From NCBI GenBank assembly GCA_963660485.1, contig CAVKYH010000006.1, forward strand, positions 522 to 64,521: a stretch of 64,000 bases of DNA, written 5' to 3'. Origin of the DNA: a bacterium (GTDB lineage: Bacteria > Bacteroidota > Bacteroidia > Bacteroidales > Bacteroidaceae). Position 1 is the stretch's first letter. Every line of letters starts with the position of its first letter. The position numbers were made by a program, and so were the translations under genes. The notes below the pieces were generated by a model. That model saw nothing but the letters and a program-made list of their open reading frames with translations, ran no database searches and was not told where the DNA came from. Positions 2,417-63,116 of the stretch are shown piece by piece.

Positions 2417-2536
2417 GAAAAACTACAAGCCATATCGTTAAAAACGATGTCTGACGTTATTTAAATATGTCTGACATCATTTAAACAATGTCTGATATTA
2501 TTCAAATAATGTCTGACTTCGTTTTTGCGATATCCG
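2417..2536. repeat. 21-nt modular repeat, copy 1 (E-type array)
   Basis: GAAAAACTACAAGCCATATCGTTAAAAACG followed by 4 direct units. ATGTCTGA starts at 2447, 2467, 2488 and 2509 (20/21/21-nt spacing) with linkers TTATTTAAAT / CATTTAAACA / TTATTCAAATA. Ends GTTTTTGCGATATCCG. Lies between the divergent HAD and GH3 genes. Confidence 0.85.
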
Positions 2537-2659
2537 CACAACGATTTCTGGCAAGAAATATACTGTTTTCAACAAGCCCCGCATACCATAAAAAACGCCA
2601 TGGCGAACGTACCAGGAAATACTTTGTCCCTCACATCGCAATGTTATTTGGCTTAATGC

Positions 2660-2667
2660 TAATTTTG
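2660..2667 (+). promoter_or_regulatory. candidate -7 box for the GH3 gene
   Basis: TAATTTTG, 36 nt upstream of ATG 2703. Confidence 0.45.
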
Positions 2668-2702
2668 CATCAAACTATATCCGTACAAAAACTTATTGCA
2701 AC

Positions 2703-5198
2703 ATGAAACTTCACATCATGATAGCAACGGCGGCATTCTTTTTCAGCCCGCTGTTTTCCCAAGCCCAACCTTTGGTGGAAATATCAGCCAAAGACGTAAA
2801 CCGCGCCAAGGAGTTGGTAGCCCAAATGACGCTCGACGAAAAAATATCACTGATCAGCGGAAACTCCGACGGCATGTCGCTGCGCGCCATACCGCGCCTG
2901 GGAATTCCTGCATTGCAGATGCACGACGGGCCACAGGGTATCGGACAAGGTATAAAGGGAGTATTCTTTCCCTGCGGCATGCTCACAGCCGCGACATGGG
3001 ACCGCAACATGGCGAAACTCGTGGGCGAAAGTCTGGCAACCGACTTCAAGGCCCACAACACCGATGTGATTCTCGGTCCGGGCGTAAACATTTACCGCGC
3101 CACGCTATGCGGCAGAAACTTTGAATACTTCGGCGAAGACCCTTACCTTGCAAGCGAAACGGCAAAGCAGTATATCATCGGGGTACAAAGCAAAGGTGTG
3201 ATTGCTACTATCAAACATTTTGCGGCAAACAACATGGAATGGGGACGAAACTATGTAAACTCAAACGTAGACCTCCGCACTCTGAACGAAATATATCTCG
3301 CAACTTTCCGAAAAGCTGTAAAAGAAGCCAAAGTGGGTGCCGTAATGGACAGCTACAACCTGCTCTACGGAATACACACCACCGAAAGCCGTTACCTTAA
3401 TATTGATTTGCTTAGAAAGGAATGGGGATTCAAGGGAATTGTCATGAGCGATTGGGGAGCCGTACATTCCACAGTGGCAACGGCCAACGGAGGGCTTGAT
3501 CTCGAGATGCCGACTTCGGAATACTGGAAAAACGAACTCGTAAAAGACGCAATGAGCAAGGGATTGGTTTCAGAAGCAACGATAAACGAGAAAGTGCAGC
3601 ACATACTGCAAACAATGAGCGCTTTCGGCGTGCTCGACAAAGATTCCACGAGAAACAACGAAAACTACGAGAAACAAAAACTCTCCGAGCTCAAAGCTGC
3701 GGCGCTCAAAATCGCAGAAAACGGAATCACCTTGCTTAAAAACGAAAACGACATACTGCCGCTGGGAAAACAAAAGTTCGTGGTGCTCGGACCAAATGCC
3801 GACAAAATAGCACGAGGCGGCGGAAGCGGACAAGTAAACTACTATTCCGCCGTTACGCCGTGGGAGGGAATTCGAAAGACATTCGGCAAACAAGCTACAT
3901 TGTTGGCTGACGGGGACTACAAGGCCGCATTGCCGAAAAATGCTTTCAAACCTGAGAAAAACTCCACGCAATATGGTTTCAAAGCCGAGTATTTCGGAAA
4001 CAAAACCCTCGGGGGCACGCCTATCGCTACGCGCATGGAGGAACAGCCATATATGGACAACAATACAAAACTGCCCGACGGATTGCAAACCACAGACTAT
4101 TCCGTGAGATGGACGGGCGTTTTTGAGGCACAGGAAACGGGCATCGTTTTCTTTGAACTCGCCGGAGACGACGGCTATCGGCTTTTCGTTGACAACAAAC
4201 AGGTTTGCGACGAATGGAGAGACCAGGCCACGAAAAAGACAACTTATTGCCTCGACGCCGAAAAGGGCAAAACCTACGACATAAGGGTGGAATATTACCA
4301 GGGAACGGGCGACAGAATTTTCAAGTTCGCTCCCTACGTAACCAACTACGCCAAAATGGACGCACAACTTCAGAATTTCAATACGGCAGTGGTATGCGTG
4401 GGATTTGATACCGACACCGAAACCGAAGGAAGCGACCGCACGTTCAATCTTCCCTTTGGCCAGGACGAACTTATAAAACATGTGGCGCAAAAGGTGGGGA
4501 ATGTTGTGGTTGTAATCAATTCTGGCGGCGGCATAGACTTCAAACCTTGGATTTATAAGGTAAAGGGCGTGATTATGTCGTGGTATCCGGGACAGGAAGG
4601 CGGAACTGCGCTTGCCAATATCCTTTGCGGAAAAGTTAATCCGAGCGGGAAACTGCCTATGTCGATAGAGAAAAAATGGGAAGACAATCCTGCGCACAAC
4701 GACTTCTACTCCTCAGGCGAATCAAACGAGATAACATACAACGAAGGTCTGTTCTACGGCTACCGAGGATACGAAAGAGAAGGAAAAAGCGTGATGTTCC
4801 CCTTCGGATTCGGCTTGAGCTACACCTCGTTTGCCTATTCCGACATCAAGACAGCAAACATCGGCAAAAACAGAGTGCGTATCACTTTCAAGGTAAGAAA
4901 CATGGGACAACGCGCAGGCGCTGAAGTGGCGCAGCTATACGTCAGGCCGCTCACGCCGTCGGTTGTGCGCCCTATAAAGGAGCTTAAAGGATACGAGAAA
5001 GTGTATCTTGAAAAAGGCGAAACCAAAACCGTTACAATAAATCTCTACGAAGACGCGTTTTCATACTACGACGTCAACACCGAAGGCTTTGTGGTAGATT
5101 CGGGAGACTATCAAATTCTCGTAGGGCCTTATTCCGACGACCTGCCGCTGCAAACCAACGTGAAAATAAACGCCCTGACAAGCGCAACAAGCAATTAA
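2703..5198 (+). CDS. GH3 beta-glucosidase with inserted PA14 domain, signal peptide
   Basis: 831 aa. N-terminal signal-like MKLHIMIATAAFFFSPLFSQA and GH3 blocks (GPGVNIYR, KHFAANN, VMSDWGA). A PA14-like segment follows (YFGNKTLGG..VRWTGVFEA..GDDGYRLFVDNKQV) and then the C-terminal GH3 domains. Confidence 0.9.
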   Translation: MKLHIMIATAAFFFSPLFSQAQPLVEISAKDVNRAKELVAQMTLDEKISLISGNSDGMSLRAIPRLGIPALQMHDGPQGIGQGIKGVFFPCGMLTAATWDRNMAKLVGESLATDFKAHNTDVILGPGVNIYRATLCGRNFEYFGEDPYLASETAKQYIIGVQSKGVIATIKHFAANNMEWGRNYVNSNVDLRTLNEIYLATFRKAVKEAKVGAVMDSYNLLYGIHTTESRYLNIDLLRKEWGFKGIVMSDWGAVHSTVATANGGLDLEMPTSEYWKNELVKDAMSKGLVSEATINEKVQHILQTMSAFGVLDKDSTRNNENYEKQKLSELKAAALKIAENGITLLKNENDILPLGKQKFVVLGPNADKIARGGGSGQVNYYSAVTPWEGIRKTFGKQATLLADGDYKAALPKNAFKPEKNSTQYGFKAEYFGNKTLGGTPIATRMEEQPYMDNNTKLPDGLQTTDYSVRWTGVFEAQETGIVFFELAGDDGYRLFVDNKQVCDEWRDQATKKTTYCLDAEKGKTYDIRVEYYQGTGDRIFKFAPYVTNYAKMDAQLQNFNTAVVCVGFDTDTETEGSDRTFNLPFGQDELIKHVAQKVGNVVVVINSGGGIDFKPWIYKVKGVIMSWYPGQEGGTALANILCGKVNPSGKLPMSIEKKWEDNPAHNDFYSSGESNEITYNEGLFYGYRGYEREGKSVMFPFGFGLSYTSFAYSDIKTANIGKNRVRITFKVRNMGQRAGAEVAQLYVRPLTPSVVRPIKELKGYEKVYLEKGETKTVTINLYEDAFSYYDVNTEGFVVDSGDYQILVGPYSDDLPLQTNVKINALTSATSN

Positions 5199-5225
5199 AA
5201 ACCAAACATTCCAAATATCAACAAA

Positions 5226-5384
5226 ATGACATCTACTATCACCTACATAATATTGGCTATAATTGCCGTTGCAGCCGTTGTTTTAATCGTGAAAAAGCTT
5301 ACCGGCTGCCTGATAAAGATTGTGGTTGCAATAATAGCGCTTGCCGCATTGACGCTCGCCTATTTCCATTTCTTCGCAAGCTGA
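5226..5384 (+). CDS. possible small two-helix membrane protein (52 aa)
   Basis: ATG at 5226, TGA at 5382-5384. Translation MTSTITYIILAIIAVAAVVLIVKKLTGCLIKIVVAIIALAALTLAYFHFFAS has two hydrophobic helices around a KK turn. It is below the 60-aa cutoff of the ORF track, and there is no homology evidence. Confidence 0.3.
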   Translation: MTSTITYIILAIIAVAAVVLIVKKLTGCLIKIVVAIIALAALTLAYFHFFAS

Positions 5385-5471
5385 AAACATCTTTTCTGTA
5401 TCGCTTTCAGATGATGCGACAACCTTGCCCACAACACGGCAAAGGCATACACAAAATTCTGTCATACTCAT

Positions 5472-5516
5472 AAAAAATCCGGCGGGCCAAAATGTGCCTG
5501 CCGGATTGTATTTTCT
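5472..5516. terminator. bidirectional hairpin terminator between the GH3/small-ORF unit and the 5703..6095 gene
   Basis: ATCCGGCGGGC (5477-5487) pairs with GCCTGCCGGAT (5496-5506) with one mismatch. There is an A-run upstream (a T-run on the minus strand) and TTGTATTTT downstream. Confidence 0.5.
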
Positions 5517-5535
5517 GCCCCGAAAATCCCATGTC

Positions 5536-5653
5536 ATAAAAACGTTTTCGCATCTCGAAAAAACTACACGGCATCTCGTAAAAATTCCAAGGCATCTAAT
5601 TTAAATTCCGACGCATCTAATTCAAATTAGATGCGTCGGAATTTTCGCAAAAA
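5536..5653. repeat. 21-nt modular repeat, copy 2 (T-T-C-A-A')
   Basis: GCATCT at 5550, 5571, 5592 and 5613 (exact 21-nt phase). CCGACGCATCTAATTCAAATTAGATGCGTCGG is a 32-nt palindrome with one linker mismatch. Confidence 0.9.
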
Positions 5654-5702
5654 TAAATGTTTGTTTTTCAGCAACATACAAAGAGAGAAAAATCCGCGTT
5701 TT

Positions 5703-6095
5703 CTACTCTCCGCCAATGAGCATCATAGCTTCGTCGCGCAATGCCGGAGGCAACTCAATGCGCCGGCGGCGAAGACTTTCAAGCCACAAGGCAACTTCCT
5801 CGGGTTTTAGTCCTTCGAGAATCTCTTCAAAAATTTCCAACTGCTCATCGGTATATTCTTCGGGGCTTTTTCCGGCAAGCGCATCAAGTTCGTCGTCGTT
5901 GAAATCGGTATCTGCGGCAGTTTCCGCCTCAAGCACTTTCGACGCCGCGCATACATCAAAGCACGTTCCGCACTGCTCGTTGCAATCGCCGGGCTTTTCT
6001 TTTTGCGGAATGCGGTCGAAAGGATTACGGCGTATGTAAACAGCAAAGACAACAATGCCCGCAAGAAGCAGAACCACAAGTATTATCGGAAACAT
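5703..6095 (-). CDS. hypothetical single-pass membrane protein with Cys cluster and acidic C-terminal half
   Basis: 130 aa. N-terminal TM helix (MFPIILVVLLLAGIVVFAVYI), then CNEQCGTCFDVC, then a D/E-rich tail. The stop of this gene lies 11 nt from the aroA start, so the two are probably co-transcribed. Confidence 0.5.
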   Translation of the reverse strand: MFPIILVVLLLAGIVVFAVYIRRNPFDRIPQKEKPGDCNEQCGTCFDVCAASKVLEAETAADTDFNDDELDALAGKSPEEYTDEQLEIFEEILEGLKPEEVALWLESLRRRRIELPPALRDEAMMLIGGE

Positions 6096-6106
6096 AACCG
6101 TAGGTT

Positions 6107-7354
6107 TTACAATTCTTCGACGTTAAAACCCACCGCGCGCAGGTCGTCCCAGTAACGGGGATAGGACTTGCACACCACTTCCGGGTTTTCGATGCGAATC
6201 TCCCCCGTCTTGATGCAAAGAGGAGCGATGCTCATTGCCATGCGATGGTCGTCGTAGGTTTTTATCACGGCATCTTTTTGCGCATCACAGCGTTCGCCGT
6301 CCCAATACATCGTGCCGTCGGGCAAATCTCTCACCACGTATCCCAGTTTTGCCAGTTCGGTTTCAAGAGCTGCGATGCGGTCGGTTTCCTTTACGCGAAG
6401 ATTTGAAAGCCCAGCAAACCTAAACCGTATTCCCAAGCCGCAGCACGTCGCCACAAAGGTTTGCGCCAAATCGGGCTCGCCGCCCAAATCAAGCTCCAAG
6501 GCATCTGTTTCAGCCCATTCGCCTTTGCAGATTTTCGCACTGCCGTTGGAAAACGAAGTTTCTACGCCAAGTTTCCGAAAATAATCCATTCCTTTTGAAT
6601 CTCCCTGCAAGCTGTTTTCATACAATGCAGGAAGCAGGAACGCGGAATGCGCATCTTGTGTCAACGCCATCAGTTCATACCAATACGACGCGGCACTCCA
6701 GTCGCTTTCCACCGTATATGGTTTTGCCGAATAGCCACCCTGCTCCACCGTTATCGTATCCACGGCGGTCCATTCGGCTTTCGCGCCAAACGACCTCATA
6801 AGTTCGAGCGTCATGTTGATATATGGGCGCGACGCAATGGTGCCGTTGAGCGTGAGACGAAGCCCGCCGTTCAAACAAGGGGCTATCATGAGCAAAGCAG
6901 ATATATATTGCGAACTTACGTCGGCAGGCAGAGAAATTTCGCCGCCGTGCATCGTGGCTCCGCCAACGCGAAGCGGAGGAAATCCGTCGGCTTTTGCGTA
7001 TTCGATGTCAGCCCCCAAATTGCGCAATGCCTCAACGAGTATCGTTATGGGGCGTTGCTGCATTCGCGCCGAGCCAGTGATTGTGCGCCGCAAGGGCTGC
7101 AAACTGAAATAAGCCGTGAGAAAACGCATCGCTGTGCCCGCGCCGTGAACATCAACCGGCATCTCGGCATTGTTTCCATTGGCAAGGGCAGCAATCATTA
7201 CCGCCGTGTCGTCGCACTCGGCGAGGTTGGAAATCTCTTGCGGCACACGCGAAAGCGCATTTATGACAAGCACACGATTCGAAAGGCTTTTGGAGGCCGG
7301 AAGAACCACTTTTTTTACACCGAAACCCTTTGGCGGAGTAAGTTTATAGATCAT
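6107..7354 (-). CDS. aroA: 3-phosphoshikimate 1-carboxyvinyltransferase (EPSP synthase)
   Basis: The track ORF runs to 7564, but its first 70 codons are antisense to the tRNA gene. The start is set at ATG 7354 (MIYKLTPPKG..). EPSPS blocks include LPASKSLSNR, GTAMRFL, KETDRI and DHRMAMS. Confidence 0.9.
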   Translation of the reverse strand: MIYKLTPPKGFGVKKVVLPASKSLSNRVLVINALSRVPQEISNLAECDDTAVMIAALANGNNAEMPVDVHGAGTAMRFLTAYFSLQPLRRTITGSARMQQRPITILVEALRNLGADIEYAKADGFPPLRVGGATMHGGEISLPADVSSQYISALLMIAPCLNGGLRLTLNGTIASRPYINMTLELMRSFGAKAEWTAVDTITVEQGGYSAKPYTVESDWSAASYWYELMALTQDAHSAFLLPALYENSLQGDSKGMDYFRKLGVETSFSNGSAKICKGEWAETDALELDLGGEPDLAQTFVATCCGLGIRFRFAGLSNLRVKETDRIAALETELAKLGYVVRDLPDGTMYWDGERCDAQKDAVIKTYDDHRMAMSIAPLCIKTGEIRIENPEVVCKSYPRYWDDLRAVGFNVEEL

Positions 7355-7381
7355 TTTCAAGCGTAATTTCGTTTTGTTCGG

Positions 7382-7389
7382 CAAAAATA
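7382..7389 (-). promoter_or_regulatory. candidate -7 box for aroA
   Basis: + strand caaaaata = TATTTTTG on the minus strand, 28 nt upstream of ATG 7354. Confidence 0.45.
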
Positions 7390-7423
7390 TTGATTTATTT
7401 TTTGATATGTCAGAAAAACGCCA

Positions 7424-7431
7424 TACATTTG
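7424..7431 (+). promoter_or_regulatory. candidate -7 box for tRNA-Pro
   Basis: TACATTTG, 64 nt upstream of the mature tRNA 5' end. Confidence 0.4.
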
Positions 7432-7494
7432 CACTCGCAAACGCGAAAAGGCCGCAAGGCGTGAAAACGTTCTCGGTCTTTACCCAAGCAAAAG

Positions 7495-7569
7495 CGGGGT
7501 GTAGCTCAGTCCGGTTAGAGTACACGTCTGGGGGGCGCGAGGTCGCTGGTTCGAATCCAGTCACCCCGA
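7495..7569 (+). tRNA. tRNA-Pro (anticodon GGG)
   Basis: 75-nt cloverleaf read by eye. Acceptor CGGGGTG/CACCCCG with discriminator A, D arm GCTC..GAGT, anticodon arm CACGT-CTGGGGG-GCGCG (one A.C mismatch), T arm GCTGG-TTCGAAT-CCAGT. No encoded CCA. Confidence 0.8.
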
Positions 7570-7576
7570 CTTCAAA

Positions 7577-7616
7577 AAAGCACGACTTTCAAAAGCCGTG
7601 CTTTTTTGTTTTTTCA
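7577..7616 (+). terminator. rho-independent terminator after tRNA-Pro
   Basis: AAAGCACG .. CGTGCTTT 8-bp stem, followed by TTTGTTTTTT. Confidence 0.65.
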
Positions 7617-7685
7617 ACTCCCGTCAAAAGATTTCTTCCTACATATATTATCTTGTTGACACAGAATAAATTAAAAACAATGCAA

Positions 7686-7809
7686 GATATCGAAAAAACT
7701 CCAAGGCATATCGTAAAAACAATGTCTGACATTGTTTGAATAATGTCTGACATCGTTTAAATAATATCAGACATCGTTTGAATAATATCTGACATTGGAA
7801 AAACGATAT
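7686..7809. repeat. 21-nt modular repeat, copy 3 (C-like terminal unit + 4 E-type units)
   Basis: CCAAGGCATATCGTAAAAACA, then ATGTCTGACATTGTTTGAATA, ATGTCTGACATCGTTTAAATA, ATATCAGACATCGTTTGAATA and ATATCTGACATTGGAAAAACG. Confidence 0.85.
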
Positions 7810-7868
7810 TGGGAGAAGAAAAAACGGGACGAAAAATGCTGCAATTTTCAGCCGTCCGCAATGATTTT

Positions 7869-9857
7869 CTACCGCTTCGACTGCGCCTGACACTTCATTC
7901 CCTCTTGCTGATATGCCGAAAAGGGAAAAGTAAGACAGGCTGTGCCGTCCATAGTTGGCTCGTTGGTGGAATAGTCGTGGGTGCTGTCGTGATAAACCCG
8001 GTCGCCGGGCTGAAATTCCTCGTAATTGTTTCCCCCTTCTGTGCTTATGCCCAAAAGACTGTTGAAGATAGTGGAATAAACCGGCCCGTCAACCAATCCG
8101 CCAAGGGTGTTGCCGAGTTTGTATTTGATAATGAACGAATGGGGTTGGGTGGGGAAAACGCCGTGTTGCGGAAAACCTGCAATCATACTCACTCCCCACG
8201 GATTGCAACCGAGGAGCCAGTCGCGCAGAGCGCCTTCCATTTCTTCAAACTCCCTGTCGCCCGTGAGTTGGCGGTAGAGAATGCATTGGGTAAGCATTGC
8301 CGTGGTGAGATTGTTTGAGCACCAAATTCCGGGAATGCCGTAAAGAAATGGCGTGTGCCTTGCCTTTTCCCACGTGCGCATTATTCCCGAGCGCAGATTG
8401 CGCACAAACTCCGCCGCAAGGTTTTTGCCGCCTTCTTTGGCAAGCAGATAATGCCCCATGTTCATGAACGGATACCATTGGTAGTGTCTCGCGCTGTCGG
8501 CTCCCATCCAAGGCGTTACGGGCTCGCGCCGCGCATATTCCACAGCCTCTTTCATATAGTTTTCGTCGCCCGTCTGATGAAACAGTTCCATTGCCGCCAG
8601 TTCCATGTCGTCAGTCCAGTTGTCTTCCTCGTAGATGTAGGGCGACAAAACCGATGCCGTTTGACACACACCGGGTTTCGCCTTTCCGGTGAGGTATGCC
8701 GCGCGGGCTTTCGCGCCTATCTTTGCGGCGAAATCGGGATAAAACGGCGCGAGAACCTTTGAGCCGAGGGCAAAGTCGGACGCAAATTTCCCTGCCGTGC
8801 TTGCCACTCCCGTGGTGTTGTTTTTCAGTCCGTGTTTGCCGCGTTGTTGTGGTTCTCCCGAACAATACCAAACGGGACGATAACTGCCTTTGCCCCACCC
8901 GTAATCGGCTTTGTCGTCATGAGGCAGGCGCATGCCTATATGATCGCGGTCGTCGGCTATCTGGTTGTACATCTCGCCCGGCGCAGGATTCATCTTGTCG
9001 AGCCAAAGAAGCCCCCAATAAATTTCATCTACGATATCGGGAATCCCGTTAGCGCCTGGAGTTCCATCGGCTCTATGAGTGTCGCCAAACGATGTTGGGT
9101 TTTGTATATACGCAAACATCATCTGGTAGATTGCATTTGCGGAGGTGGTGGTATATTGCAGGCAATCGGACGCGTCATGCCAACCGCCGCGCACATCGAT
9201 GCGCGTGCTGTCTTTGCGGAGCGGTTTGCCGTCGGACGCAAGCCTTACACTGCCGTCGGGATTTATGGCATTGCAAAAACCTACTACCATTCCGTCGTAA
9301 ACATGACAACTGTCGCGCAAAAAAGGATTCCAGCCGCAGCGTTGTTGCCGCATATAGTTGAGCACAAAATCGGCTGCGCCGTTGTAAACATCGTTGGAAA
9401 TTTTGAAGCTTGGGGAAGCGGAAAAACGAGGTCTGACATAATTTAAATTCCGGGCCACCAAATTTAAATTAGATGCGTCGGAGTTTTTACGAGATGCCTT
9501 GTATTTTTTTCGCTCTTTGTTTTCTTTCAGAAAAACCCTTATATAATATTGTCCTTGTGCTTGGAAATCACTGAAATTCAGGCGTGCCGTTGTTTTCATT
9601 CGCCCCATTTCGCCGGTTTCAACTATATATGGTTTGTGCGCCGTGCCTTGTTTTTTGTTTTTCCCGGTATAGACCGCTTTTTGCGTGGCAGCGTCAACGA
9701 TTTCAAAGCGCACGATTTCGGCTTTTTCCTCGCTCATAAACACCGCCACCTTAGTTGCCGACGGCAGATAGCCGAGTAGGTTTATCCTAATCCACGAACC
9801 GGCACACGACATCTGAATTGCCATAGCCGAAAACAGTATGGTAAAAAAATATTTCAT
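7869..9857 (-). CDS. GH9 glycoside hydrolase with N-terminal Ig-like domain, carrying an in-frame repeat insertion
   Basis: 662 aa. Signal peptide, Ig-like N-domain (IRINLLGYLPSATKVAVF) and GH9 blocks (GGWHDASDCLQY, YHDSTHDYSTNEPTMDGTA). Residues about 108-146 (..KKYKASRKNSDASNLNLVARNLNYVRPRFS) are encoded by repeat copy 4. Confidence 0.85.
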   Translation of the reverse strand: MKYFFTILFSAMAIQMSCAGSWIRINLLGYLPSATKVAVFMSEEKAEIVRFEIVDAATQKAVYTGKNKKQGTAHKPYIVETGEMGRMKTTARLNFSDFQAQGQYYIRVFLKENKERKKYKASRKNSDASNLNLVARNLNYVRPRFSASPSFKISNDVYNGAADFVLNYMRQQRCGWNPFLRDSCHVYDGMVVGFCNAINPDGSVRLASDGKPLRKDSTRIDVRGGWHDASDCLQYTTTSANAIYQMMFAYIQNPTSFGDTHRADGTPGANGIPDIVDEIYWGLLWLDKMNPAPGEMYNQIADDRDHIGMRLPHDDKADYGWGKGSYRPVWYCSGEPQQRGKHGLKNNTTGVASTAGKFASDFALGSKVLAPFYPDFAAKIGAKARAAYLTGKAKPGVCQTASVLSPYIYEEDNWTDDMELAAMELFHQTGDENYMKEAVEYARREPVTPWMGADSARHYQWYPFMNMGHYLLAKEGGKNLAAEFVRNLRSGIMRTWEKARHTPFLYGIPGIWCSNNLTTAMLTQCILYRQLTGDREFEEMEGALRDWLLGCNPWGVSMIAGFPQHGVFPTQPHSFIIKYKLGNTLGGLVDGPVYSTIFNSLLGISTEGGNNYEEFQPGDRVYHDSTHDYSTNEPTMDGTACLTFPFSAYQQEGMKCQAQSKR
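9421..9512. repeat. 21-nt modular repeat, copy 4 (D/E-B-A'-T'), located inside the GH9 coding sequence
   Basis: GAAAAACGAGGTCTGACATAATTTAAATTCCGGGCCACCAAATTTAAATTAGATGCGTCGGAGTTTTTACGAGATGCCTTGTATTTTTTTCG. On the minus strand it reads in frame as ..KKYKASRKNSDASNLNLVARNLNYVRPRFS.. Confidence 0.9.
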
Positions 9858-12998: not shown

Positions 12999-13037
12999 AC
13001 TTTCAGCCGCATTCCAGGTGCTGAAAAAAGGGCATTT

Positions 13038-13136
13038 GATATCGTTTTTACGAGGTCAGACCTAATTTAAATTCCGGGCCACCAAATTTAAATTAGATGG
13101 CCCGGAGTTTTTGCGAGATGCCGTGTAGTTTTTCCG
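13038..13136. repeat. 21-nt modular repeat, copy 5 (D-B-B'variant-T')
   Basis: GATATCGTTTTTACG AGGTCAGACCTAATTTAAATT CCGGGCCACCAAATTTAAATT AGATGGCCCGGAGTTTTTGCG AGATGCCGTGTAGTTTTTCCG. Confidence 0.9.
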
Positions 13137-13379
13137 CATAGGCAAACGAGTGTTGTTTCTTGGGATTTCAATTTGTATTTCAAGCCGTTACGCAATTATT
13201 TCGGAGCATTCCGCATTTCCGCAGAAAGACGGGCTGCAAACGGCAACGTTTTCCAGTTTTTCAACGCCCATTATATCCGATATAAAGTTGGGCTTTTTAA
13301 TTTTATTGACAAACGAAGCCTTGAAATCAACTATTTTTATTTTCTTTGCAAAGCATAACTTACAAAAACCTACAACCAT

Positions 13380-15641: not shown

Positions 15642-15656
15642 CGCCCACCTCCTTTT

Positions 15657-15752
15657 TCGCAAAAAACTCCGACGCATCTAATTTAAATTAGATGCGTCGG
15701 AATTTAAATTTGGTGGCCCGGAGTTTTTACAAGATGCCTTGTCTGAAAAACG
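15657..15752. repeat. 21-nt modular repeat, copy 6 (A-A'-B'-T')
   Basis: Perfect 32-nt palindrome CCGACGCATCTAATTTAAATTAGATGCGTCGG at 15669..15700, followed by AATTTAAATT TGGTGGCCCGG AGTTTTTACA AGATGCCTTGT. Confidence 0.92.
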
Positions 15753-15769
15753 GTGTCAAATCTTGTATT

Positions 15770-44356: not shown

Positions 44357-44365
44357 AACATTGCC

Positions 44366-48428: not shown

Positions 48429-48510
48429 CAAAAATCCGGTGAAAGTATTTCAAGCATCTACACTTTCACCGGACCGTTATAATTCCGGAAAATTCGGCAT
48501 CAGAGCCGAA
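48427..48510 (-). terminator. two tandem terminator hairpins after ssb
   Basis: Minus strand: TTCGGC-TCTGAT-GCCGAA + TTTTCC (48487-48510), then a perfect 11-bp stem CCGGTGAAAGT/ACTTTCACCGG (48436-48472) followed by ATTTTTGTTT. Confidence 0.6.
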
Positions 48511-50781: not shown

Positions 50782-50868
50782 CGAAGAATTATTCATTCGG
50801 CAAGTTAGCAAAACTTAAAGTTAATGTAGCAAGCCTATTGCGGGCTATTTTTTGCAACACGCGATGGC

Positions 50869-50980
50869 GCAAAAACGATGTCTGACATCGGGAAATACGA
50901 GGTCAGACCTAATTTAAATTAGATGCGTCGGAATTTAAATTTGGTGGCCCGGAGTTTTTACGAGATGCCTTGTAGTTTTC
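50869..50980. repeat. 21-nt modular repeat, copy 16 (E-D-A'-B'-T', chimeric)
   Basis: GCAAAAACG ATGTCTGACATCGGGAAATACG AGGTCAGACCTAATTTAAATT AGATGCGTCGGAATTTAAATT TGGTGGCCCGGAGTTTTTACG AGATGCCTTGTAGTTTTC. Confidence 0.9.
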
Positions 50981-51041
50981 GGCATGTCAAAACAAGGGAT
51001 TTCGGGGACGGGAAACGCTCCGCCAACAAGCCGGAAAATTC

Positions 51042-52259: not shown

Positions 52260-52873
52260 CTGTCAATCCCAAAAGCCATCATGGTTTTGCGAGTTCCAAC
52301 CACATTCCAACCCCAAGAAGCCTCTTCGGAATTTGCAGCCTCGATGTAGCTGCCATATCGCTTAAAACGAAAGGCTCGTCAGTTGCGGCAAGAACAATAT
52401 CGTAGCGCGTTTCGCCAATAACAAACAAAAACGCCGTTTACTCTCATTTAATGCTGCGCTAAACCTATTTCTCGTTGACAACCTTGACTCTTGTTTTTAA
52501 CGCAACAGCAATGCCGCTGCGAACAACAGCAATCTACTGTTTCATTAAGATTTCAATTCTGATAATCTTGGTTGTTTTATTTATAAAATTAGACTCGGGG
52601 CGTTTATCCCCAGGTTTAGTTTTATTCGTTTTGGTATAAGTTTTAATTTAGTACTTTGTGGACTGTCCCACGCACTTAGTGGACCTATTTCTATTTCGGG
52701 TGCAAAAATGCAGTTTTGACTTTCATAAGCATTTGTCAAGACTAAAACATCGGTTGTTATGTCTAAAATAAAACTTGTTTAGCCTTTTTAATCCACCCTG
52801 CGGCATAACTTAAAACATTAAAGAAACCATGAGCAAATTTCGGCGGAAAACGTTATAAATTAATTATTTTTGC

Positions 52874-52881
52874 TATATTTG
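52874..52881 (+). promoter_or_regulatory. candidate -7 box for the LuxR-type membrane regulator
   Basis: TATATTTG, 52 nt upstream of ATG 52933. That ATG is out of frame with the main ORF across the T9 run. Confidence 0.45.
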
Positions 52882-52984
52882 CGGCATATATGAGCATAAA
52901 AAGGCTCTTAACAAATCAAGATTTCCAAACGCATGAAAATTTCTCTGTCCAACAGAATTGCAAATACCCTAAATCTGTTTTTTT

Positions 52985-54391: not shown

Positions 54392-54484
54392 CGAAAAACG
54401 ATATCGGATATCGCAAAAACGATGTCAGACATAATTTAAATAATGTCTGACATCGTTTAAACTAGATGCCTTGGAGTTTTTGCC
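54392..54484. repeat. 21-nt modular repeat, copy 17 (E'-E-C', chimeric)
   Basis: CGAAAAACGATATCGGATATCGCAAAAACG ATGTCAGACATAATTTAAATA ATGTCTGACATCGTTTAAACT AGATGCCTTGGAGTTTTTGCC. Confidence 0.88.
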
Positions 54485-54515
54485 GTAAACCGGCTACTTT
54501 TTCCTCAAAGCGTTA

Positions 54516-58090: not shown

Positions 58091-58867
58091 TTAGAAATTC
58101 AAGCCGCAGCCAATTCCTACGGCAGCAGAATTTTTACTGTTGTGCACGGGAATCACAGTTGGCTTCACGTTAAGACTAAGGTCCTTTGAAATGTCAAACT
58201 GTGAGAGTTGTGCATCTACATATGCGTCAATGACCGACAGAAGATAGACACCTACAAACGAGAATGCCGCATAGTCTCTCCACCGTCGGTAACGGTCTTT
58301 TTTATTCTTGAATATTGTTTTAAATCTATCCTCCAATCCTGTAATATCATAGTTTGGCGGCAGCATATTGGTGTAGCTGTGCGTGTTTGGGTCATCGTCC
58401 ATGATATCTATATAGGCTTGGGAATAATCTTTATACATTTGCTGGTTCCACATCAAGGCGTAAGTGCAGCCAAGAAAGCCTCCGTAGAAAATCGGCAGCT
58501 TCCAATATTTTCTGTTGTAGATTTGTCCGGCTCCGGGAATCACGAGTGCGAGCCAAAGGGCGCGTTTGGGATCGGGCACGAACTTCGGTTTTGGAAGTTT
58601 GCGTTTCAACGCTCCTTTCATAACCGAATCCACTTGCTGTACAATCTTTGTAGAATCATCTGCAAGGGACGCTGCTGTTTTTTCAGCGGCATTTTCTATA
58701 GAATCCCTTTGTTCGATTTTCGGCAATACGCTGTCGGAAAGTATCGGAAGTGTACATGCCGTAGCACTGTCGGCAAGGAAAACGCATAGCACAAGAATTG
58801 CTGCCAGCACGATATTTCGCGGGCAGCAAGTAATTCCGTTTGCCGATGTGTTGAAATTGGTTCTCAC
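58091..58867 (-). CDS. membrane protein (DUF5683-like) downstream of parB
   Basis: 258 aa. 4-nt overlap with the parB stop. Hydrophobic segments and a GAGQIYNRKYWKLP block. The family name is from memory. Confidence 0.55.
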   Translation of the reverse strand: MRTNFNTSANGITCCPRNIVLAAILVLCVFLADSATACTLPILSDSVLPKIEQRDSIENAAEKTAASLADDSTKIVQQVDSVMKGALKRKLPKPKFVPDPKRALWLALVIPGAGQIYNRKYWKLPIFYGGFLGCTYALMWNQQMYKDYSQAYIDIMDDDPNTHSYTNMLPPNYDITGLEDRFKTIFKNKKDRYRRWRDYAAFSFVGVYLLSVIDAYVDAQLSQFDISKDLSLNVKPTVIPVHNSKNSAAVGIGCGLNF

Positions 58868-59757
58868 TTACCTTTGTCGAGCATAGCGATTATCCGTTCC
58901 ATCTCTTCCTGATTACGAAACGGGATAGTGATTTTACCTTTTCCCTGCGGCGAACAGGTCATCTTTACTTTTGTTCCGAAATGGTCTGACAAGTGTTTCT
59001 GCAAAGCGTTGTATTCTTCGTTGTTGTCCTTGTCCCGGCGTGCGCGAATGCGTTTGCCGCCATTGTTAACGTCTTCTCCGCTGTTAAGACGGTTTACAAT
59101 TTCTTCCACCTTTCTCACCGAGAGTCCCTGGCTCTTTATCTCTTCAAACACACGCAACTGTGTGGCGGCGCTAGGCAGTCCCAGCAATGCGCGGGCGTGT
59201 CCCTGGTCGATTACCTTGTTTTTCAAAGCCATTTGCACGGGAGCGGGTAGTTTCAGAAGCCGTAGATAATTGGTTACAGTGGCACGTTTTTTACCCACTT
59301 TCTCGGAGAGTTCTTCTTGTTTCAGTCCGTATTGTTCAATAAGTCCCTGATAAGCGAGCGCAATCTCTATGGGGTTGAGGTCTTCGCGCTGAATGTTTTC
59401 CACGAGAGCCATTTGCATGGTCTTCTCATCGTCGGCGGTGCGTATATATGCCGGCACGGATTTCAGTCCAGCCCTTTGCGCGGCTCTCCATCGGCGTTCT
59501 CCCGCAATAATCTGGTATGAGCCGTCGCCCATGTTTCTCAGCGTAACGGGCTGCACTATTCCCAATTCCCTGATAGAGTCAGCAAGTTCATCGAGCGACT
59601 GTTCGCTAAAATCTCGCCTTGGCTGGTTGGGGTTGGGAACGATAAGATTTACGGCTATCTCGCCTATCGACGAACTGCCCGACGTTTTCACTTCGCCGGT
59701 AGTTATCAGCGCGTCGAGTCCGCGGCCCAATGCTTGATATTTTTTCTGTACTGCCAT
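58864..59757 (-). CDS. parB: chromosome partitioning protein ParB/Spo0J
   Basis: 297 aa. GRGLDALI, the ParB box IVPNPNQPRRDF and an HTH (EELSEKVGKKRATVTNYLRLL). Confidence 0.9.
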   Translation of the reverse strand: MAVQKKYQALGRGLDALITTGEVKTSGSSSIGEIAVNLIVPNPNQPRRDFSEQSLDELADSIRELGIVQPVTLRNMGDGSYQIIAGERRWRAAQRAGLKSVPAYIRTADDEKTMQMALVENIQREDLNPIEIALAYQGLIEQYGLKQEELSEKVGKKRATVTNYLRLLKLPAPVQMALKNKVIDQGHARALLGLPSAATQLRVFEEIKSQGLSVRKVEEIVNRLNSGEDVNNGGKRIRARRDKDNNEEYNALQKHLSDHFGTKVKMTCSPQGKGKITIPFRNQEEMERIIAMLDKGK

Positions 59758-59790
59758 AGATTTCTTGTTTGGAAAACTTATACGTCCCTT

Positions 59791-60558
59791 TTATTTTCTG
59801 TCTTTCTCAATCACATCGCGCGCGAGTTCCAAGTAGCTTTTCGCGCCTATTGATGTGGCATCGTATAGAATGGCCGGAACGCCGTGGCTCGGGGCTTCGC
59901 TCAATTTCACATTGCGCTGTATCACGGTTTTGAACACCAATTCCTGAAAATGTCGGCGCACCTCGTCGTTGATCTGGTTTGCAAGTCTCAGTCGGGAGTC
60001 GTACATCGTGAGCAGGAAGCCTTCGATTTCGAGTGCGGGGTTCAATTTTTTCTTGATTATCTTTATTGTATTGAGCAGTTTGCTTATTCCTTCGAGTGCA
60101 AAGTATTCGCATTGCACAGGAATAATCACGCTGTCGGAGGCAACGAGAGAATTCACCGTGATAAGTCCGAGCGACGGGCTGCAGTCTATCAGAATATAGT
60201 CGTATTCGGAGCGCAGCGGGTCGAGCACCTTTTTCATCAACTTTTCGCGGTTTTCAAAATTGAGCATCTCCACTTCCGCCCCCACAAGGTCGATGTGGCT
60301 CGGCAGAATGTCAAGCCCGTCGATATCTGTGGTGTAGATTGCCTCGTGAACGTCGGTATTGTTCACTATACACTCGTAGATAGAGCAATCCACCTTTCTC
60401 ACGTCAACGCCCAAACCCGACGAAGCATTTGCCTGAGGGTCTGCATCGACGAGCAGGACGGTTTTCTCCAAGGTGGCGAGCGATGCTGCAAGATTCATCG
60501 CCGTTGTGGTTTTTCCCACACCGCCTTTTTGATTTGCTAATGATATTATTTTTCCCAT
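59791..60558 (-). CDS. parA: chromosome partitioning ATPase ParA/Soj
   Basis: 255 aa. Deviant Walker A NQKGGVGKTTT. Confidence 0.92.
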   Translation of the reverse strand: MGKIISLANQKGGVGKTTTAMNLAASLATLEKTVLLVDADPQANASSGLGVDVRKVDCSIYECIVNNTDVHEAIYTTDIDGLDILPSHIDLVGAEVEMLNFENREKLMKKVLDPLRSEYDYILIDCSPSLGLITVNSLVASDSVIIPVQCEYFALEGISKLLNTIKIIKKKLNPALEIEGFLLTMYDSRLRLANQINDEVRRHFQELVFKTVIQRNVKLSEAPSHGVPAILYDATSIGAKSYLELARDVIEKDRK

Positions 60559-60592
60559 ATTAAATGCTATCAGCCATAAGGCTGTGAGTATG

Positions 60593-60600
60593 CAAAAATA
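60593..60600 (-). promoter_or_regulatory. candidate -7 box for parA-parB
   Basis: + strand caaaaata = TATTTTTG on the minus strand, 35 nt upstream of ATG 60558. Confidence 0.45.
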
Positions 60601-60828
60601 AAAAAAATCTTGCAGTCCCCAATCCTCTGCAGTGCTAAATAAACAAAAGGCGCTCCGTAATAATTATGAATTAACAATTTCTACACACCACGAAGCGGAA
60701 TTTGAAACACATGCCCACCGCTGTTGCCGTTTGCCGCATTCCGCCGGCACAAGACGGGATATCTGCCCCCGAAAAAGCGTTTTGGGAAGACCGAAACATG
60801 ATATTGATTTTCACAAGGTTAGAAACGT

Positions 60829-60919
60829 GAAAACGACAAGGCATTTCGTTTAAATTACAAGCCATATTGTTTAAATTATGTCTGACATTGTTTTCGCGAT
60901 ATCCGACATTGCAAAAACA
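60829..60919. repeat. 21-nt modular repeat, copy 18 (degenerate, chimeric)
   Basis: GAAAACG ACAAGGCATTTCGTTTAAATT ACAAGCCATATTGTTTAAATT ATGTCTGACATTGTTTTCGCG ATATCCGACATTGCAAAAACA. Confidence 0.8.
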
Positions 60920-60958
60920 GCGTCTCGCAGCATGCTCCAAACTGTCGGGGGAAAAATG

Positions 60959-60966
60959 TATCTTTG
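60959..60966 (+). promoter_or_regulatory. candidate -7 box for surE-lpxB
   Basis: TATCTTTG, 22 nt upstream of ATG 60988. Confidence 0.5.
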
Positions 60967-60987
60967 CATATAATTTTCAACAAATCA

Positions 60988-61761
60988 ATGAACAGTCAGC
61001 GCAAACTCATACTTATTTCAAACGACGACGGATACCTCGCGCCGGGAATCAACTTGCTAATAAAATGGCTGCGGCCATTGGCCGACCTTGTAGTGGTAGC
61101 CCCCGAAAGCGGACGCTCGGGAGCGGCATGTTCCATTACATCGGCTGTGCCCGTTACCGTCTCGGAAATTCGGAGTGAGGAAGGGCTTAAAATATACGCC
61201 TGCTCCGGCACCCCTACCGACTGTGTGAAACTGGCCTTGCACGACATCGTTCCGCGCCGTCCCGACCTCGTGGTGGGCGGAATAAACCACGGCGACAACG
61301 CATCAATCAACGTTCACTATTCGGGCACACTCGGAGTAGCAATAGAGGGCGCGCTCCACAAAATCAAGGCAGTGGCGTTTTCTTCGTGCAACCACGACAT
61401 AAAAGCCGACCTTTCGGCGCTGAAGCCATACGTTGTGGAAATCACCCAAGCGGCTCTTGAAAACACGATGCCCGAGTTCACTTGTCTCAACGTCAACTTC
61501 CCCGCCCTACCCTCGTTCAACGGCGTGAAGATATGCCGCATGTGCCATAGCCAATGGCTCAACGAATTCAGAAGATGCGATGTAGAAAACTGCGGCACCT
61601 ATTATTTTCTCACCGGCAACTGGACAAACACGGAACCGCAAAGCACCGACACCGACAGCTATGCGCTAGAGCACGGATTTGTGGCCATCACACCCACACA
61701 GATTGACGTTACCGCCCAAAATCTCTTTGACGAAATTAAAAACTGGAACATAGAACGATGA
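60988..61761 (+). CDS. surE: 5'/3'-nucleotidase SurE
   Basis: Start set at ATG 60988 (MNSQRKLILISNDDGY..), because the track start 60964 lies inside the -7 box. SurE blocks SNDDG and GINHGDN. Confidence 0.9.
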   Translation: MNSQRKLILISNDDGYLAPGINLLIKWLRPLADLVVVAPESGRSGAACSITSAVPVTVSEIRSEEGLKIYACSGTPTDCVKLALHDIVPRRPDLVVGGINHGDNASINVHYSGTLGVAIEGALHKIKAVAFSSCNHDIKADLSALKPYVVEITQAALENTMPEFTCLNVNFPALPSFNGVKICRMCHSQWLNEFRRCDVENCGTYYFLTGNWTNTEPQSTDTDSYALEHGFVAITPTQIDVTAQNLFDEIKNWNIER

Positions 61762-62933
61762 AATATTTCCTGATAGCCGGCGAAGCAAGCGGCGACATTC
61801 ACGCCGCAAACCTGATAAACGCCCTGCGCGAGCACGACGGAGAAGCTACATTCTACGCCTACGGCGGAGAACTAATGGAAGCCGCAGGAGCAAAAATGCT
61901 TTGCTACTATCGCGACATTGCTTATATGGGCGTGGTGAGCGTGGCAATGCATGCGCGGACCATTCTGAGAGCAATGAAACGCTGCAAGGAAGAAATCCTG
62001 TCGGTAAACCCCGACGTGGTGGTGCTTGTGGACTATCCGGGATTCAACCTCGCAATTGCGAAATACGTGAAAACCCACACGCAAATCCCCGTATTCTATT
62101 ACATATCGCCGAAGATTTGGGCTTGGCGCGAGAGCCGCATAAAACTGCTGCGGAACTATGTGGACGAAATCTTTTCGATTCTCCCCTTCGAGGTGGAATA
62201 TTTCAGCCGGCGAGGCATGAAGATACACTATGTAGGCAACCCAACGGTAGACGAAGTGGAGGAATTCCAACGCATTCACCTTGCCGACACAATGGAATCC
62301 TTTGCCGAAGAAAACAACCTGAACCCTGCAAAAAAGATAATAGCCATACTTGCCGGCAGCCGCAAACAAGAAATAAACTACAACCTTTGGAAAATGTGCA
62401 CCGCGGCACAAAAGCTCACCCGCAAAGGATATCAACTGGTTATTGCGGGCGCGCCGAATATCGACACGGCCTTGTATCACAAAAACATTCCGGCAGAAAT
62501 GCTGCGCAAGGGCACCGTGAAACTCGTATTCGGCAAAACATATTCACTACTCTCCTTTGCGTCGGCAGCACTCGTAACCTCGGGCACAGCAACCCTCGAA
62601 ACAGCATTGTTCAGAGTGCCGCAAGTGGTTTGCTACTACATTCCCATGGGAAAAACAGTCTCTTTCCTGCGAAAAAAACTGCTCAAAGTGAAATACATAT
62701 CCCTCGTGAACCTAATTGCAGGGCGCGAAGTGGTGAAAGAACTCGTTGCCGACGGAATGAACGTGGAAAACGTAAGCACGGAATTGGAGAAAATCACATT
62801 TTCCGACAGTTGTCGCAACGAAATGTTCAAAGGATATACCGAACTTTCAGGCATTCTCGGCGGAGCTGGTGCCTCGGCAAACGCCGCAAAAGAGATTACG
62901 GAATGCCTGCAACAGCGAATGACTGAAAAATAA
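61758..62933 (+). CDS. lpxB: lipid-A-disaccharide synthase
   Basis: 391 aa. MKYFLIAGEASGDIHAANL.. is a typical LpxB N-terminus. ATGA overlap with the surE stop. Confidence 0.9.
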   Translation: MKYFLIAGEASGDIHAANLINALREHDGEATFYAYGGELMEAAGAKMLCYYRDIAYMGVVSVAMHARTILRAMKRCKEEILSVNPDVVVLVDYPGFNLAIAKYVKTHTQIPVFYYISPKIWAWRESRIKLLRNYVDEIFSILPFEVEYFSRRGMKIHYVGNPTVDEVEEFQRIHLADTMESFAEENNLNPAKKIIAILAGSRKQEINYNLWKMCTAAQKLTRKGYQLVIAGAPNIDTALYHKNIPAEMLRKGTVKLVFGKTYSLLSFASAALVTSGTATLETALFRVPQVVCYYIPMGKTVSFLRKKLLKVKYISLVNLIAGREVVKELVADGMNVENVSTELEKITFSDSCRNEMFKGYTELSGILGGAGASANAAKEITECLQQRMTEK

Positions 62934-63025
62934 ACCGCCGCAGATTTTTTATTTCCCCACAATTCCAGTTTACTTCCACACGCTTCTTGTTTTCACCACA
63001 CGCAAAAAACCCACTTCCTCACGCT

Positions 63026-63116
63026 AAAAAAAACGACAAGGCATCTCGTAAAAACTGCAAGCCATGTAATTTAAATTCCAAGGCATCTAATTCAAATTAC
63101 ATGGCCCGGAATTTTG
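63026..63116. repeat. 21-nt modular repeat, copy 19 (T-variant-C-B'variant)
   Basis: AAAAAAACG ACAAGGCATCTCGTAAAAACT GCAAGCCATGTAATTTAAATT CCAAGGCATCTAATTCAAATT ACATGGCCCGGAATTTTGCCC. Confidence 0.88.

Follow-up and report, generated by a model that had tools for sequence, protein, structure and literature searches.

We analyzed a 64,000-nucleotide stretch of a Bacteroidales contig (CAVKYH010000006.1; hereafter the window). It is occupied by core chromosomal genes, among them panB, aroA, groES/EL, alaS, frr, rsgA, ssb, mutL and guaB, as well as lpxA/C/D, lptD, a relA/spoT-like gene, PBP1 and glycoside hydrolase genes, and its host is likely an uncultured Prevotellaceae-related Bacteroidales species from the gut or rumen. 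Dispersed among these genes are 19 arrays of short repeat units, found by matching six words with up to two mismatches, that total 2,046 bp against 8,826 bp of intergenic DNA (about a quarter). This agrees with a preliminary description of the window, made from the letters alone, which had counted 19 modular loci of about 2 kb in total. The repeat family to which the arrays belong is spread genome-wide at very high density (by extrapolation, about 300 arrays per Mb), occupies intergenic spacers regardless of how the neighboring genes are transcribed, and is inherited at orthologous loci.

The arrays have a strict period of 21 bp, in which an 11-bp word is combined with an AT-rich 10-bp linker; read in this 21-nt register (10-nt linker, then 11-nt word) each array holds three to eight units. 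The spacing between confidently matched words was 21 nt within each array, with a 1-nt slip in two arrays and two distant two-mismatch matches as the only exceptions, and Tandem Repeats Finder (TRF) reported period 21 at most array loci. The words and linkers were as previously described: the words A (CCGACGCATCT), B (CCGGGCCACCA), C (CCAAGGCATCT), D (AGGTCAGACCT), E (ATGTCTGACAT) and T (ACA(A/C)GGCATCT) are each used in both orientations (inverted copies are primed below). The earlier positions of GCATCT (5550, 5571, 5592 and 5613) were confirmed, as were those of ATGTCTGA (2447, 2467, 2488 and 2509), but the claimed 21-nt step did not hold for the first of the latter intervals, which is 20 nt. 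Inside arrays the linker is the palindrome AATTTAAATT, which occurs 25 times where 0.41 occurrences were expected and where 100 shuffles gave at most 2. At array ends it is replaced by an A-tract form, CGTAAAAAYT or CGAAAAAACT (or their complements). A T unit usually marks one array end, with decayed units beyond it; T and T' can cap both ends (arrays 8, 10 and 13), and most arrays have one T end only. The conserved end AAAAACTACA, present at 8 array ends, contains GTAG/CTAC, and the tetranucleotide CGTC falls inside word A'.

In each word, a single central base is framed by a 5-bp half-site on either side: A is CCGAC-G-CATCT, B is CCGGG-C-CACCA, C is CCAAG-G-CATCT, T is ACAAG-G-CATCT, D is AGGTC-W-GACCT, and E is ATGTC-W-GACAT. 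Further words combine the same common halves (CCGGG-C-CATCT, CCGGG-C-CATGT, CCGGG-C-CTTGG and AGGTC-T-GACAT). Words that had earlier been taken as diverged versions of one another are, judging from their letters, better described as recombinants of pairs of 5-bp half-sites. The variants of B (CCGGGCCACCA) keep the left half CCGGG-C and vary only in the right half, which reads CACCA, CATCT, CATGT or CTTGG (for example at 9450-9460 and 13074-13084 of the window, and in array 15 of the syntenic loci L142/L144). Since this swap falls at the word center, the module of exchange may be a 10.5-bp half-unit rather than the 21-bp unit.

Word and linker both have dyad symmetry, and since the linker reads the same on both strands, each word stands between inverted repeats. 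A lone 11-bp word (5+1+5) cannot fold, and hairpins can arise from inverted word pairs alone. Compared with shuffled sequences, most arrays folded with z-scores of -2 to -11 that were similar on both strands, and arrays 4, 8, 9 and 12 showed no significant fold (z above about -2). The equal folding of the two strands and its absence from four arrays indicate that the symmetry is a property of the DNA, and that a hairpin is not a constant feature of the family. A two-word cluster at 49927-49979 was considered as a twentieth array and set aside as it looks like a chance occurrence. The arrays, the decayed units between two of them, and the one gene that hosts an array are as follows (coordinates of the window).

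Array 1, 2415-2530: T-like unit, four E-type units and a decayed unit, between divergent HAD hydrolase and GH3 genes.
Array 2, 5545-5650: (CGCATCT)-T-C-A-A' in a convergent gap; A-A' is a 32-nt perfect palindrome.
Array 3, 7670-7810: two T/C-like units, four E-type units and decayed units, between a tRNA gene and the 3' end of the GH9 gene.
GH9 cellulase gene, 7869-9857, minus strand: CelD_N and Glyco_hydro_9 domains; hosts array 4.
Array 4, 9408-9515, minus strand: T-A-B'-D/E hybrid as read on that strand, in frame in the GH9 cellulase gene.
Array 5, 13032-13140: D-B-Bv'-T' in a divergent gap upstream of an alpha-galactosidase gene.
Array 6, 15655-15756: A-A'-B'-T' in a convergent gap, downstream of a terminator-like hairpin.
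Array 7, 17430-17545: E-like unit, A-B'-C' and a T'-like unit in a co-directional gap.
Array 8, 20360-20465: (CGCATCT)-B-A-A-T' in a co-directional gap; no significant fold.
Array 9, 25525-25625: T-C-A-D between lpxD and mutL.
Array 10, 33945-34055: E-like unit and E'-E-T-T', with two hairpin-forming pairs, between guaB and groEL.
Array 11, 36455-36565: (CCGCATCT)-C-A-(ACATGGCCCGG) and a decayed unit in a divergent gap.
Array 12, 40862-40962: T-B-A-D in a co-directional gap; no significant fold; two contigs of metagenome-assembled genomes (MAGs) end inside it.
Array 13, 44362-44475: T-A-A'-B' and a T'-like unit between tsaE and frr; the end point of three MAG contigs.
Array 14, 48110-48200: three E-type units within a variable segment of 189 bp (9 x 21), 48071-48259.
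Decayed units, 48240-48329: 21-periodic, TTTCCGCATGTCTGAAGTA-like, joining arrays 14 and 15 (TRF call at 48258-48297).
Array 15, 48330-48432: B-A'-Bw-T' (Bw is CCGGGCCTTGG) in a convergent gap beside ssb.
Array 17, 50866-50985: E unit followed by D-A'-B'-T' in a co-directional gap; an AraC-family gene adjoins.
Array 18, 54398-54490: E-like unit and E'-E-C' in a convergent gap.
Array 19, 60822-60925: T-T-E-E variants in a divergent gap.
Array 20, 63023-63115: T-(GCAAGCCATGT)-C-(ACATGGCCCGG) in a convergent gap.

Array placement followed gap length closely. The preliminary description had put arrays in most gaps longer than about 80 bp, a threshold that proved too low: 17 of the 19 gaps of at least 150 bp contain an array, and none of the 26 shorter gaps does. 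The occupied gaps comprise 6 convergent, 7 co-directional and 4 divergent ones, in keeping with the earlier view that no single transcriptional role explains the arrays, and 13 of the 17 follow at least one gene 3' end. The only large gaps without an array are 21465-22041 (577 bp) and 52152-52932 (781 bp), and the ORFs (open reading frames) that overlap them have no Pfam match. A sub-threshold Rfam match to AsdA lies at 21333-21399 (32 bits, against a gathering score of 52).

We then asked whether the family had been described before. Rfam 15 returned only a tRNA at both gathering and E-value thresholds, with RnaG and MIR2630 matching arrays far below threshold. Literature searches with the linker and five words as sequence strings gave primers and unrelated constructs only, and nothing was found on intergenic 21-bp repeats in Prevotella. 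BLAST against plasmid and phage records gave no match. Among viral contigs, the pattern linker-N11-linker had 50 AT-rich chance matches, none with any of the six words; the 19-mer of the T module had 7 matches, all protein-coding; and word plus linker had none. A search of JGI metagenome contigs for the symmetric linker-word-linker arrangement retrieved one unrelated terminator hairpin. As the preliminary description had suspected, the family appears to be undescribed, while the kind to which it belongs, the dispersed bacterial repeat, is already known.

Syntenic DNA for comparison was obtained through exact-protein look-ups, which led to two related genomes, L140 (GCA_963617515.1) and L141 (GCA_963637415.1), and to about 14 conspecific MAGs (further assemblies of conspecific or related strains include GCA_963661345.1 and GCA_963639205.1); outside the window, the DNA compared covered about 10 kb around the matching genes. 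The units are not confined to the window. Arrays were present at orthologous sites both in conspecific MAGs and in genomes whose GH9 protein is 96% and 91% identical, with differing content, and their recurrence in independent public assemblies shows that they are not an artefact of the window sequence. Moreover, all 12 contig termini examined in independent short-read assemblies lay inside arrays, which implies near-identical copies throughout the genome. The Bacteroidales neighborhood assumed earlier was confirmed by a genome scan with the alpha-galactosidase. The host itself is absent from the GTDB representatives; by this protein, the nearest of them is Prevotellaceae bacterium UBA6398 (78% identity), which has E-type 21-nt arrays and none of the GC-rich words. 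Among the GTDB representative loci fetched by alpha-galactosidase, none had two or more exact linkers or words, and a profile of the E unit run over these loci found the family in UBA6398 only.

The comparison of orthologous intergenic regions between strains, which the preliminary description had proposed, brought out polymorphism in unit number. At sites 1-5, unit counts in the window versus L140/L141 were 4 versus 3, 4 versus 5, and 6 versus 3. Site 1 has four E units in the window versus three in L140; site 2 has six units versus about three in L141 (about three fewer); and at site 3 (array 3) both unit number and words differ in L140 and L141. Changes of this type were also found among conspecific strains. 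In array 9, L151 lacks the A unit, exactly 21 bp, and the center of D is A or T among strains; in array 10, L156 lacks one E unit (21 bp). A 189-bp segment (48071-48259), corresponding to nine units, is missing in five conspecific strains. This indel is bounded by a 9-bp direct repeat, TTTCCGCAT, that lies inside decayed units; we considered transposition as its origin and rejected it, since the indel lacks inverted ends and keeps phase with the decayed units in which it lies, and we read it as unequal exchange. Other arrays were more stable: arrays 11, 12, 13, 17 and 18 keep their unit structure with at most single-base differences among conspecifics, and the structure of array 11 was unchanged in 12 conspecific loci.

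Besides unit number, the identity of modules changes as well. At site 2 the window and L140 share a core that is identical at 63 of 63 positions; in L140 one linker and one word of the array are exchanged, and the flanking intergenic DNA is about 85-89% identical. At site 5, T-Bv-B'-D in the window corresponds to E-type words in L140, in phase and with an identical flank, GATATCAAATGCCC. In array 15, B (CCGGGCCACCA) is changed to CCGGGCCATGT in two conspecific strains whose flanks are almost free of single-nucleotide differences, a three-base half-word swap from CACCA to CATGT. The preferred form of a word also differs between genomes, with A (CCGACGCATCT) and A* (CCGCCGCATCT) occurring 15:0 in the window, 2:4 in L140 and 0:1 in L141. 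Faster point substitution in arrays than in their flanks was not seen: identity between the window and L140 was 86% inside arrays and 85% in flanking spacer, and the differences within arrays were clustered as whole-module swaps. Insertion and deletion of whole units, together with replacement of half-words, words and linkers from a small vocabulary, is the pattern of concerted evolution. Among the relatives sampled, the arrays keep to orthologous sites, unlike copies that transpose freely, and it is their content that turns over. The overall interpretation given in the preliminary description is partly supported.

One array lies within a coding sequence, as had been reported. Array 4 is located in the GH9 cellulase ORF, in a loop between strands of the N-terminal Ig-like CelD_N domain, and is translated in frame as ..RKKYKASRKNSDASNLNLVARNLNYVRPRFS... 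In protein alignments the insert is absent from this loop in homologues with 66-72% identity and present in the 96% and 91% relatives. One unit equals seven codons, which makes unit gain or loss frame-neutral, as previously pointed out, and the 90%-identity GH9 cluster indeed contains alleles of 662 and 669 residues, which are set apart by exactly one unit. The insert has no fewer than five structural forms: T-A-B'-D, T-A*-A-B'-D, T-A*-A*-B'-D, T-A*-A*'-D and an all-E-type form, the last in the 91%-identity lineage. The array in this loop would have been seeded by a rare insertion after the split from the 66-72% homologues. Seven viral contigs (L132-L138) have a match to the T-module 19-mer, ACAAGGCATCTCGTAAAAA, in a stretch that encodes YYKASRKK, and the GH9 array encodes the near-identical KYKASRK (window 9478-9500). 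This likeness looks like one DNA word read in the same frame by coincidence.

Taken together, we consider it moderately probable that the arrays are non-autonomous, DNA-level dispersed repeats of the REP/BIME, MIRU or BrickBuilt kind, largely neutral or selfish, which evolve by slippage and conversion. Changes in unit number would stem from slippage during replication or from unequal exchange among units in phase. Modules would be replaced, and words inverted, by gene conversion over short patches or by template switching among the numerous arrays, processes that the inverted repeats around each word, formed by self-complementary linkers, should favor. New loci would be seeded by rare insertion events. 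The arrays would have no single dedicated transcriptional role, and those with an inverted word pair may incidentally act as bidirectional hairpins.

Several points weigh against this explanation. No event was caught in the act, and no donor arrays were identified for the proposed conversions. Conversion of the RecA type is inefficient with 10-20 bp of flanking identity, and slippage by itself would not predict so sharp a preference for 21 bp, which appears as 21-22 nt in other Bacteroidales. The 25 exact linkers and 15 exact A words could mean selection for protein binding. Likewise, orthologous retention down to 91% protein identity and the near saturation of larger spacers could mean that the arrays are useful. 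Nor does this reading account for the seeding of new loci, and the strict phase would be explained at least equally well by an enzyme that copies and pastes in a site-specific manner.

The strongest competitor, which we nevertheless hold to be unlikely, is a system of the REPIN/RAYT type, in which units, especially the inverted doublets A-linker-A', would be copied by a domesticated HUH/Y1 transposase encoded once elsewhere, with the AAAAACTACA end (GTAG on the other strand) serving as guide or cleavage tag. Array density, intergenic placement and vertical persistence at orthologous loci resemble REPIN populations, the genome-specific master variants A and A* fit a co-evolving repeat population, and many arrays contain hairpin-forming inverted pairs. 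The GTAG/CTAC motif in the conserved terminal unit at 8 array ends also agrees with such a system, REP clusters that lie in frame within genes and encode 20-30 residues have been described (PMC3733652), and Bacteroidetes encode RAYT subclass 2.6 with atypical REPs (PMC6006769). However, the REPs listed for this subclass are GC-rich hairpins of 8-10 bp with loops of 3-4 nt, none of which is like the units described here and none of which is from Bacteroidales (PMC6006769). A single 11-bp word is unable to form a hairpin, significant folding is missing from four arrays (the in-frame array of the window among them), and GTAG is not at the foot of a stem. Furthermore, every polymorphism we observed is an in-phase change within an existing array and none is a new insertion. 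Finally, no transposase, of the Y1 type or any other, was found among the window proteins scanned against Pfam, which are products of housekeeping or glycoside hydrolase genes, with five ORFs near the right end (58864-63844) outside the scan.

It is also possible, and in our estimation quite unlikely, that the arrays are phased protein-binding platforms. An abundant dimeric or oligomeric protein (a nucleoid-associated protein, condensin loader or topoisomerase) would bind on one face of the helix every second turn and structure or insulate the chromosome, as proposed for IHF- or gyrase-binding BIME sites. The strict 21-bp period, which the preliminary description had linked to cooperative protein binding on geometric grounds, equals two helical turns and is kept even as words change; word and linker have dyad symmetry; canonical modules remain exact while flanks diverge; and larger spacers are nearly saturated. 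A 21-22-nt period also dominates the short tandem repeats of other Bacteroidales loci (see below), and the sites of Bacteroides AraC-type hybrid two-component system (HTCS) regulators are direct repeats 21 bp apart that have been interpreted as bound on the same face (PMC3878776). On the other hand, the half-sites share no sequence beyond a weak MSRWS, and the E-type and terminal linkers differ from AATTTAAATT, which makes a single sequence-specific protein hard to fit. Arrays are no more identical between the window and L140 than the flanking spacer (86% versus 85%), whole arrays or units are dispensable among conspecific strains, and no candidate protein was identified.

We assign a comparably low likelihood to the view that the arrays both arise from and are acted on by an unrecognized cassette system driven by an enzyme. 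In this view the palindromic AT-rich linker would be recognized by a recombinase or domesticated transposase, which would put in, flip or exchange modules of 21 bp while keeping the phase. The same machinery, constrained by geometry, would underlie the 21-23-nt intergenic arrays found across Bacteroidales (Prevotella sp. SUG386, Bacteroides spp. and BrickBuilt), with words that are specific to each lineage.

A function at the transcript level, as bidirectional intrinsic terminators, stabilizing hairpins in 3' untranslated regions or small RNAs, is very unlikely. It would agree with the better-than-shuffled folding of most arrays (z -2 to -11), with the terminator-like A-A' hairpins at 15668-15701 and 44395-44428, with the 13 of 17 occupied gaps that follow at least one gene 3' end, and with the promoter activity of a BrickBuilt element (PMC4596501). 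Yet four arrays are situated between gene starts that diverge, and another is translated; the two strands fold equally well, four arrays show no significant fold, and several arrays have separate terminator-like hairpins beside them. Scans for terminators and consensus sigma-70 promoters showed no enrichment over shuffles (Bacteroidetes-type promoters are outside the models of the tool), and Rfam gave no match. The T unit as an outward promoter was rejected, as it takes no consistent direction with respect to the neighboring gene starts and is oriented wrongly in arrays 12 and 17. A role as operators for a single transcription factor, such as an AraC/HTCS-type regulator on direct repeats 21 bp apart, is most improbable: predicted Bacteroides HTCS motifs do have this spacing (PMC3878776) and an AraC-family gene adjoins array 17, but the neighbors are unrelated housekeeping genes (groEL, frr, mutL, guaB, lpxD and ssb), copies lie between convergent gene ends and inside a coding sequence, and the words occur in either orientation.

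To place the 21-bp period in a wider context, we ran TRF for short repeats of period 12-40 on 80 alpha-galactosidase loci (1.34 Mb), all picked via this one glycoside hydrolase. The most frequent periods were 22 (14 rows), 21 (11 rows) and 12 (11 rows), and periods 17, 18, 20 and 23 did not occur. The non-coding 21-22-nt arrays are mostly from Bacteroidales and have three to nine units, with a lineage-specific unit that often contains a short palindrome. In Prevotella sp. SUG386, six arrays within 21 kb occupy successive spacers, nearly every spacer in all, and the unit CCAAAGGGCCGTAGTGACGACG is found at two sites. Further hosts are B. timonensis, B. intestinalis, Bacteroides sp., a Tannerellaceae MAG and several rumen MAGs. 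The 21-22-nt arrays are located at the following positions.

L124: 7609-7696, 9278-9342, 11587-11657, 14990-15045, 15125-15194 and 20355-20563.
L057: 3401-3584.
L059: 5816-5990.
L062: 17687-17800.
L068: 659-776.
L098: 9174-9300.
L099: 19456-19538.
L130: 1199-1255.
L097/L105: 11615-11715.

Some of the 21-22-nt arrays elsewhere may be HTCS operators (PMC3878776). A rumen Bacteroidaceae MAG carries a four-unit 21-nt array, W1-W2-W1'-W2' (AGTGGCTCT, AAGGCTTGG, AGAGCCACT and CCAAGCCTT; L058 16634-16744), with AAATATATTTC linkers and the bounds AAAAACTTTTT/AAAAAGTTTT, which has the architecture of the window family and an unrelated sequence. The excess of 21-22-nt periods hints at a broader structural or enzymatic constraint in Bacteroidales that has not yet been described.

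Three observations concern genes neighboring the arrays. In the conspecific MAG of L153 (positions 1-8230; GCA_963612555.1), from the equivalent of window 37652-37747 onward, the alaS-merR-MFS side is replaced by two giant ORFs of over 1,360 and 2,300 residues with no Pfam match on record, and a different array with a period of about 22 nt and the word ACGCTTCGTTTT lies at the junction. In one conspecific MAG (GCA_963588365.1; L146 3163-5817 and L157 5468-8122), the alaS gene is called as two ORFs (806 + 63 residues) in place of a single one of 884 residues, which reflects a frameshift or assembly error. The longest aroA ORF (6107-7564; GTG start, 485 residues) overlaps an opposite-strand tRNA gene (7495-7569); given the 425-residue product called in relatives, the true start is near 7384.

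Dispersed short repeats have hardly been studied in Bacteroidales, the dominant bacteria of gut and rumen, compared with Proteobacteria, mycobacteria and pneumococci. In the lineage studied here the arrays break short-read assemblies at nearly every operon boundary and lower the contiguity of MAGs. At the same time, they are ready-made variable-number tandem repeat (VNTR) markers for strain tracking. The GH9 alleles, which differ by seven-residue cassettes, illustrate that an enzyme can host an array. With short phased modules and a turnover that is visible in public conspecific MAGs, the family could help to study how REP-like repeats are homogenized and spread. What is notable is its density, the half-site grammar, the seven-residue cassette polymorphism and a possible order-wide 21-22-nt rule; no new mechanism is demonstrated.

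With respect to known systems, a CRISPR array (24-48-nt repeats with unique spacers) was rejected, given the 10-nt linker, the recurring 11-nt words, the 19 loci in 64 kb, and the absence of cas genes among the scanned proteins. The MIRU of Mycobacterium tuberculosis are direct repeats of one unit of 46-100 bp, with about 40 loci per genome. Like MIRU and other VNTR loci, the arrays are dispersed intergenic minisatellites at fixed positions whose strain alleles differ by whole units and are usable for typing, as seen in the 21-bp indels of arrays 9 and 10, the 189-bp indel, the GH9 allele with seven additional residues and the count differences between species. Unlike MIRU, they have a grammar of words and linkers, flips in orientation and a far higher density. 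Pneumococcal BOX elements are organized as boxA-boxB(n)-boxC, and the modules of BOX and of Neisseria NIME/dRS3 are 45-150 bp long. The modular build, the variable number of internal modules and, for dRS3, a constant inverted repeat alternating with variable segments are shared with the arrays, whereas their longer modules lack helical phase and half-site recombination and belong to different phyla. The likeness to BOX and BIME drawn in the preliminary description was apt, and the modular mosaic is real. NIME mosaics are mentioned beside intragenic REPs in PMC3733652. Rickettsia palindromic elements likewise insert in frame into protein genes and are tolerated in surface loops (PMC3733652), but each is a single palindrome of about 100-150 bp, unlike the array of four to five units with alleles of number and word found here. 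The operators of Bacteroides AraC-type HTCS regulators have direct repeats about 21 bp apart center to center (PMC3878776); these are operators of two sites, located in the promoters of specific polysaccharide utilization loci, in contrast to three to eight units in spacers of all kinds beside housekeeping genes.

Closer parallels exist with the REP/BIME and REPIN-RAYT systems of Proteobacteria (PMC3733652, PMC3333891, PMC3116915). These also comprise hundreds of short extragenic copies, arranged in mosaic clusters of alternating orientation with few linker types and a GTAG-containing end, and they show vertical persistence, species-specific master sequences and occasional in-frame intragenic clusters of 20-30 residues. 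A REP unit, however, is a stem-loop of 20-40 nt with an unpaired GTAG/CGTC tag and variable spacing, as opposed to a strict 21-bp module whose lone words do not fold and some of whose arrays are foldless, and the arrays do not consist of stem-loop units. Within the same order, the closest system is BrickBuilt of P. gingivalis, which is likewise of limited host range in Bacteroidales (Klein et al. 2015, PMC4596501). No sequence similarity to it was seen, and the two are set apart by description rather than by alignment. BrickBuilt repeats one spacerless 23-nt unit as many as about 23 times, its leaders and tails reach about 300 nt and carry terminal inverted repeats, and it has 19 copies in 2.3 Mb (PMC4596501), against 19 in 64 kb here, where arrays have three to eight units, several words in both orientations, a palindromic linker and ends of one or two units. 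Both are nonetheless dispersed intergenic elements with a tandem core (23 nt in BrickBuilt, 21 nt here), end modules (leader and tail in BrickBuilt, T here) and a unit copy number that varies between loci.

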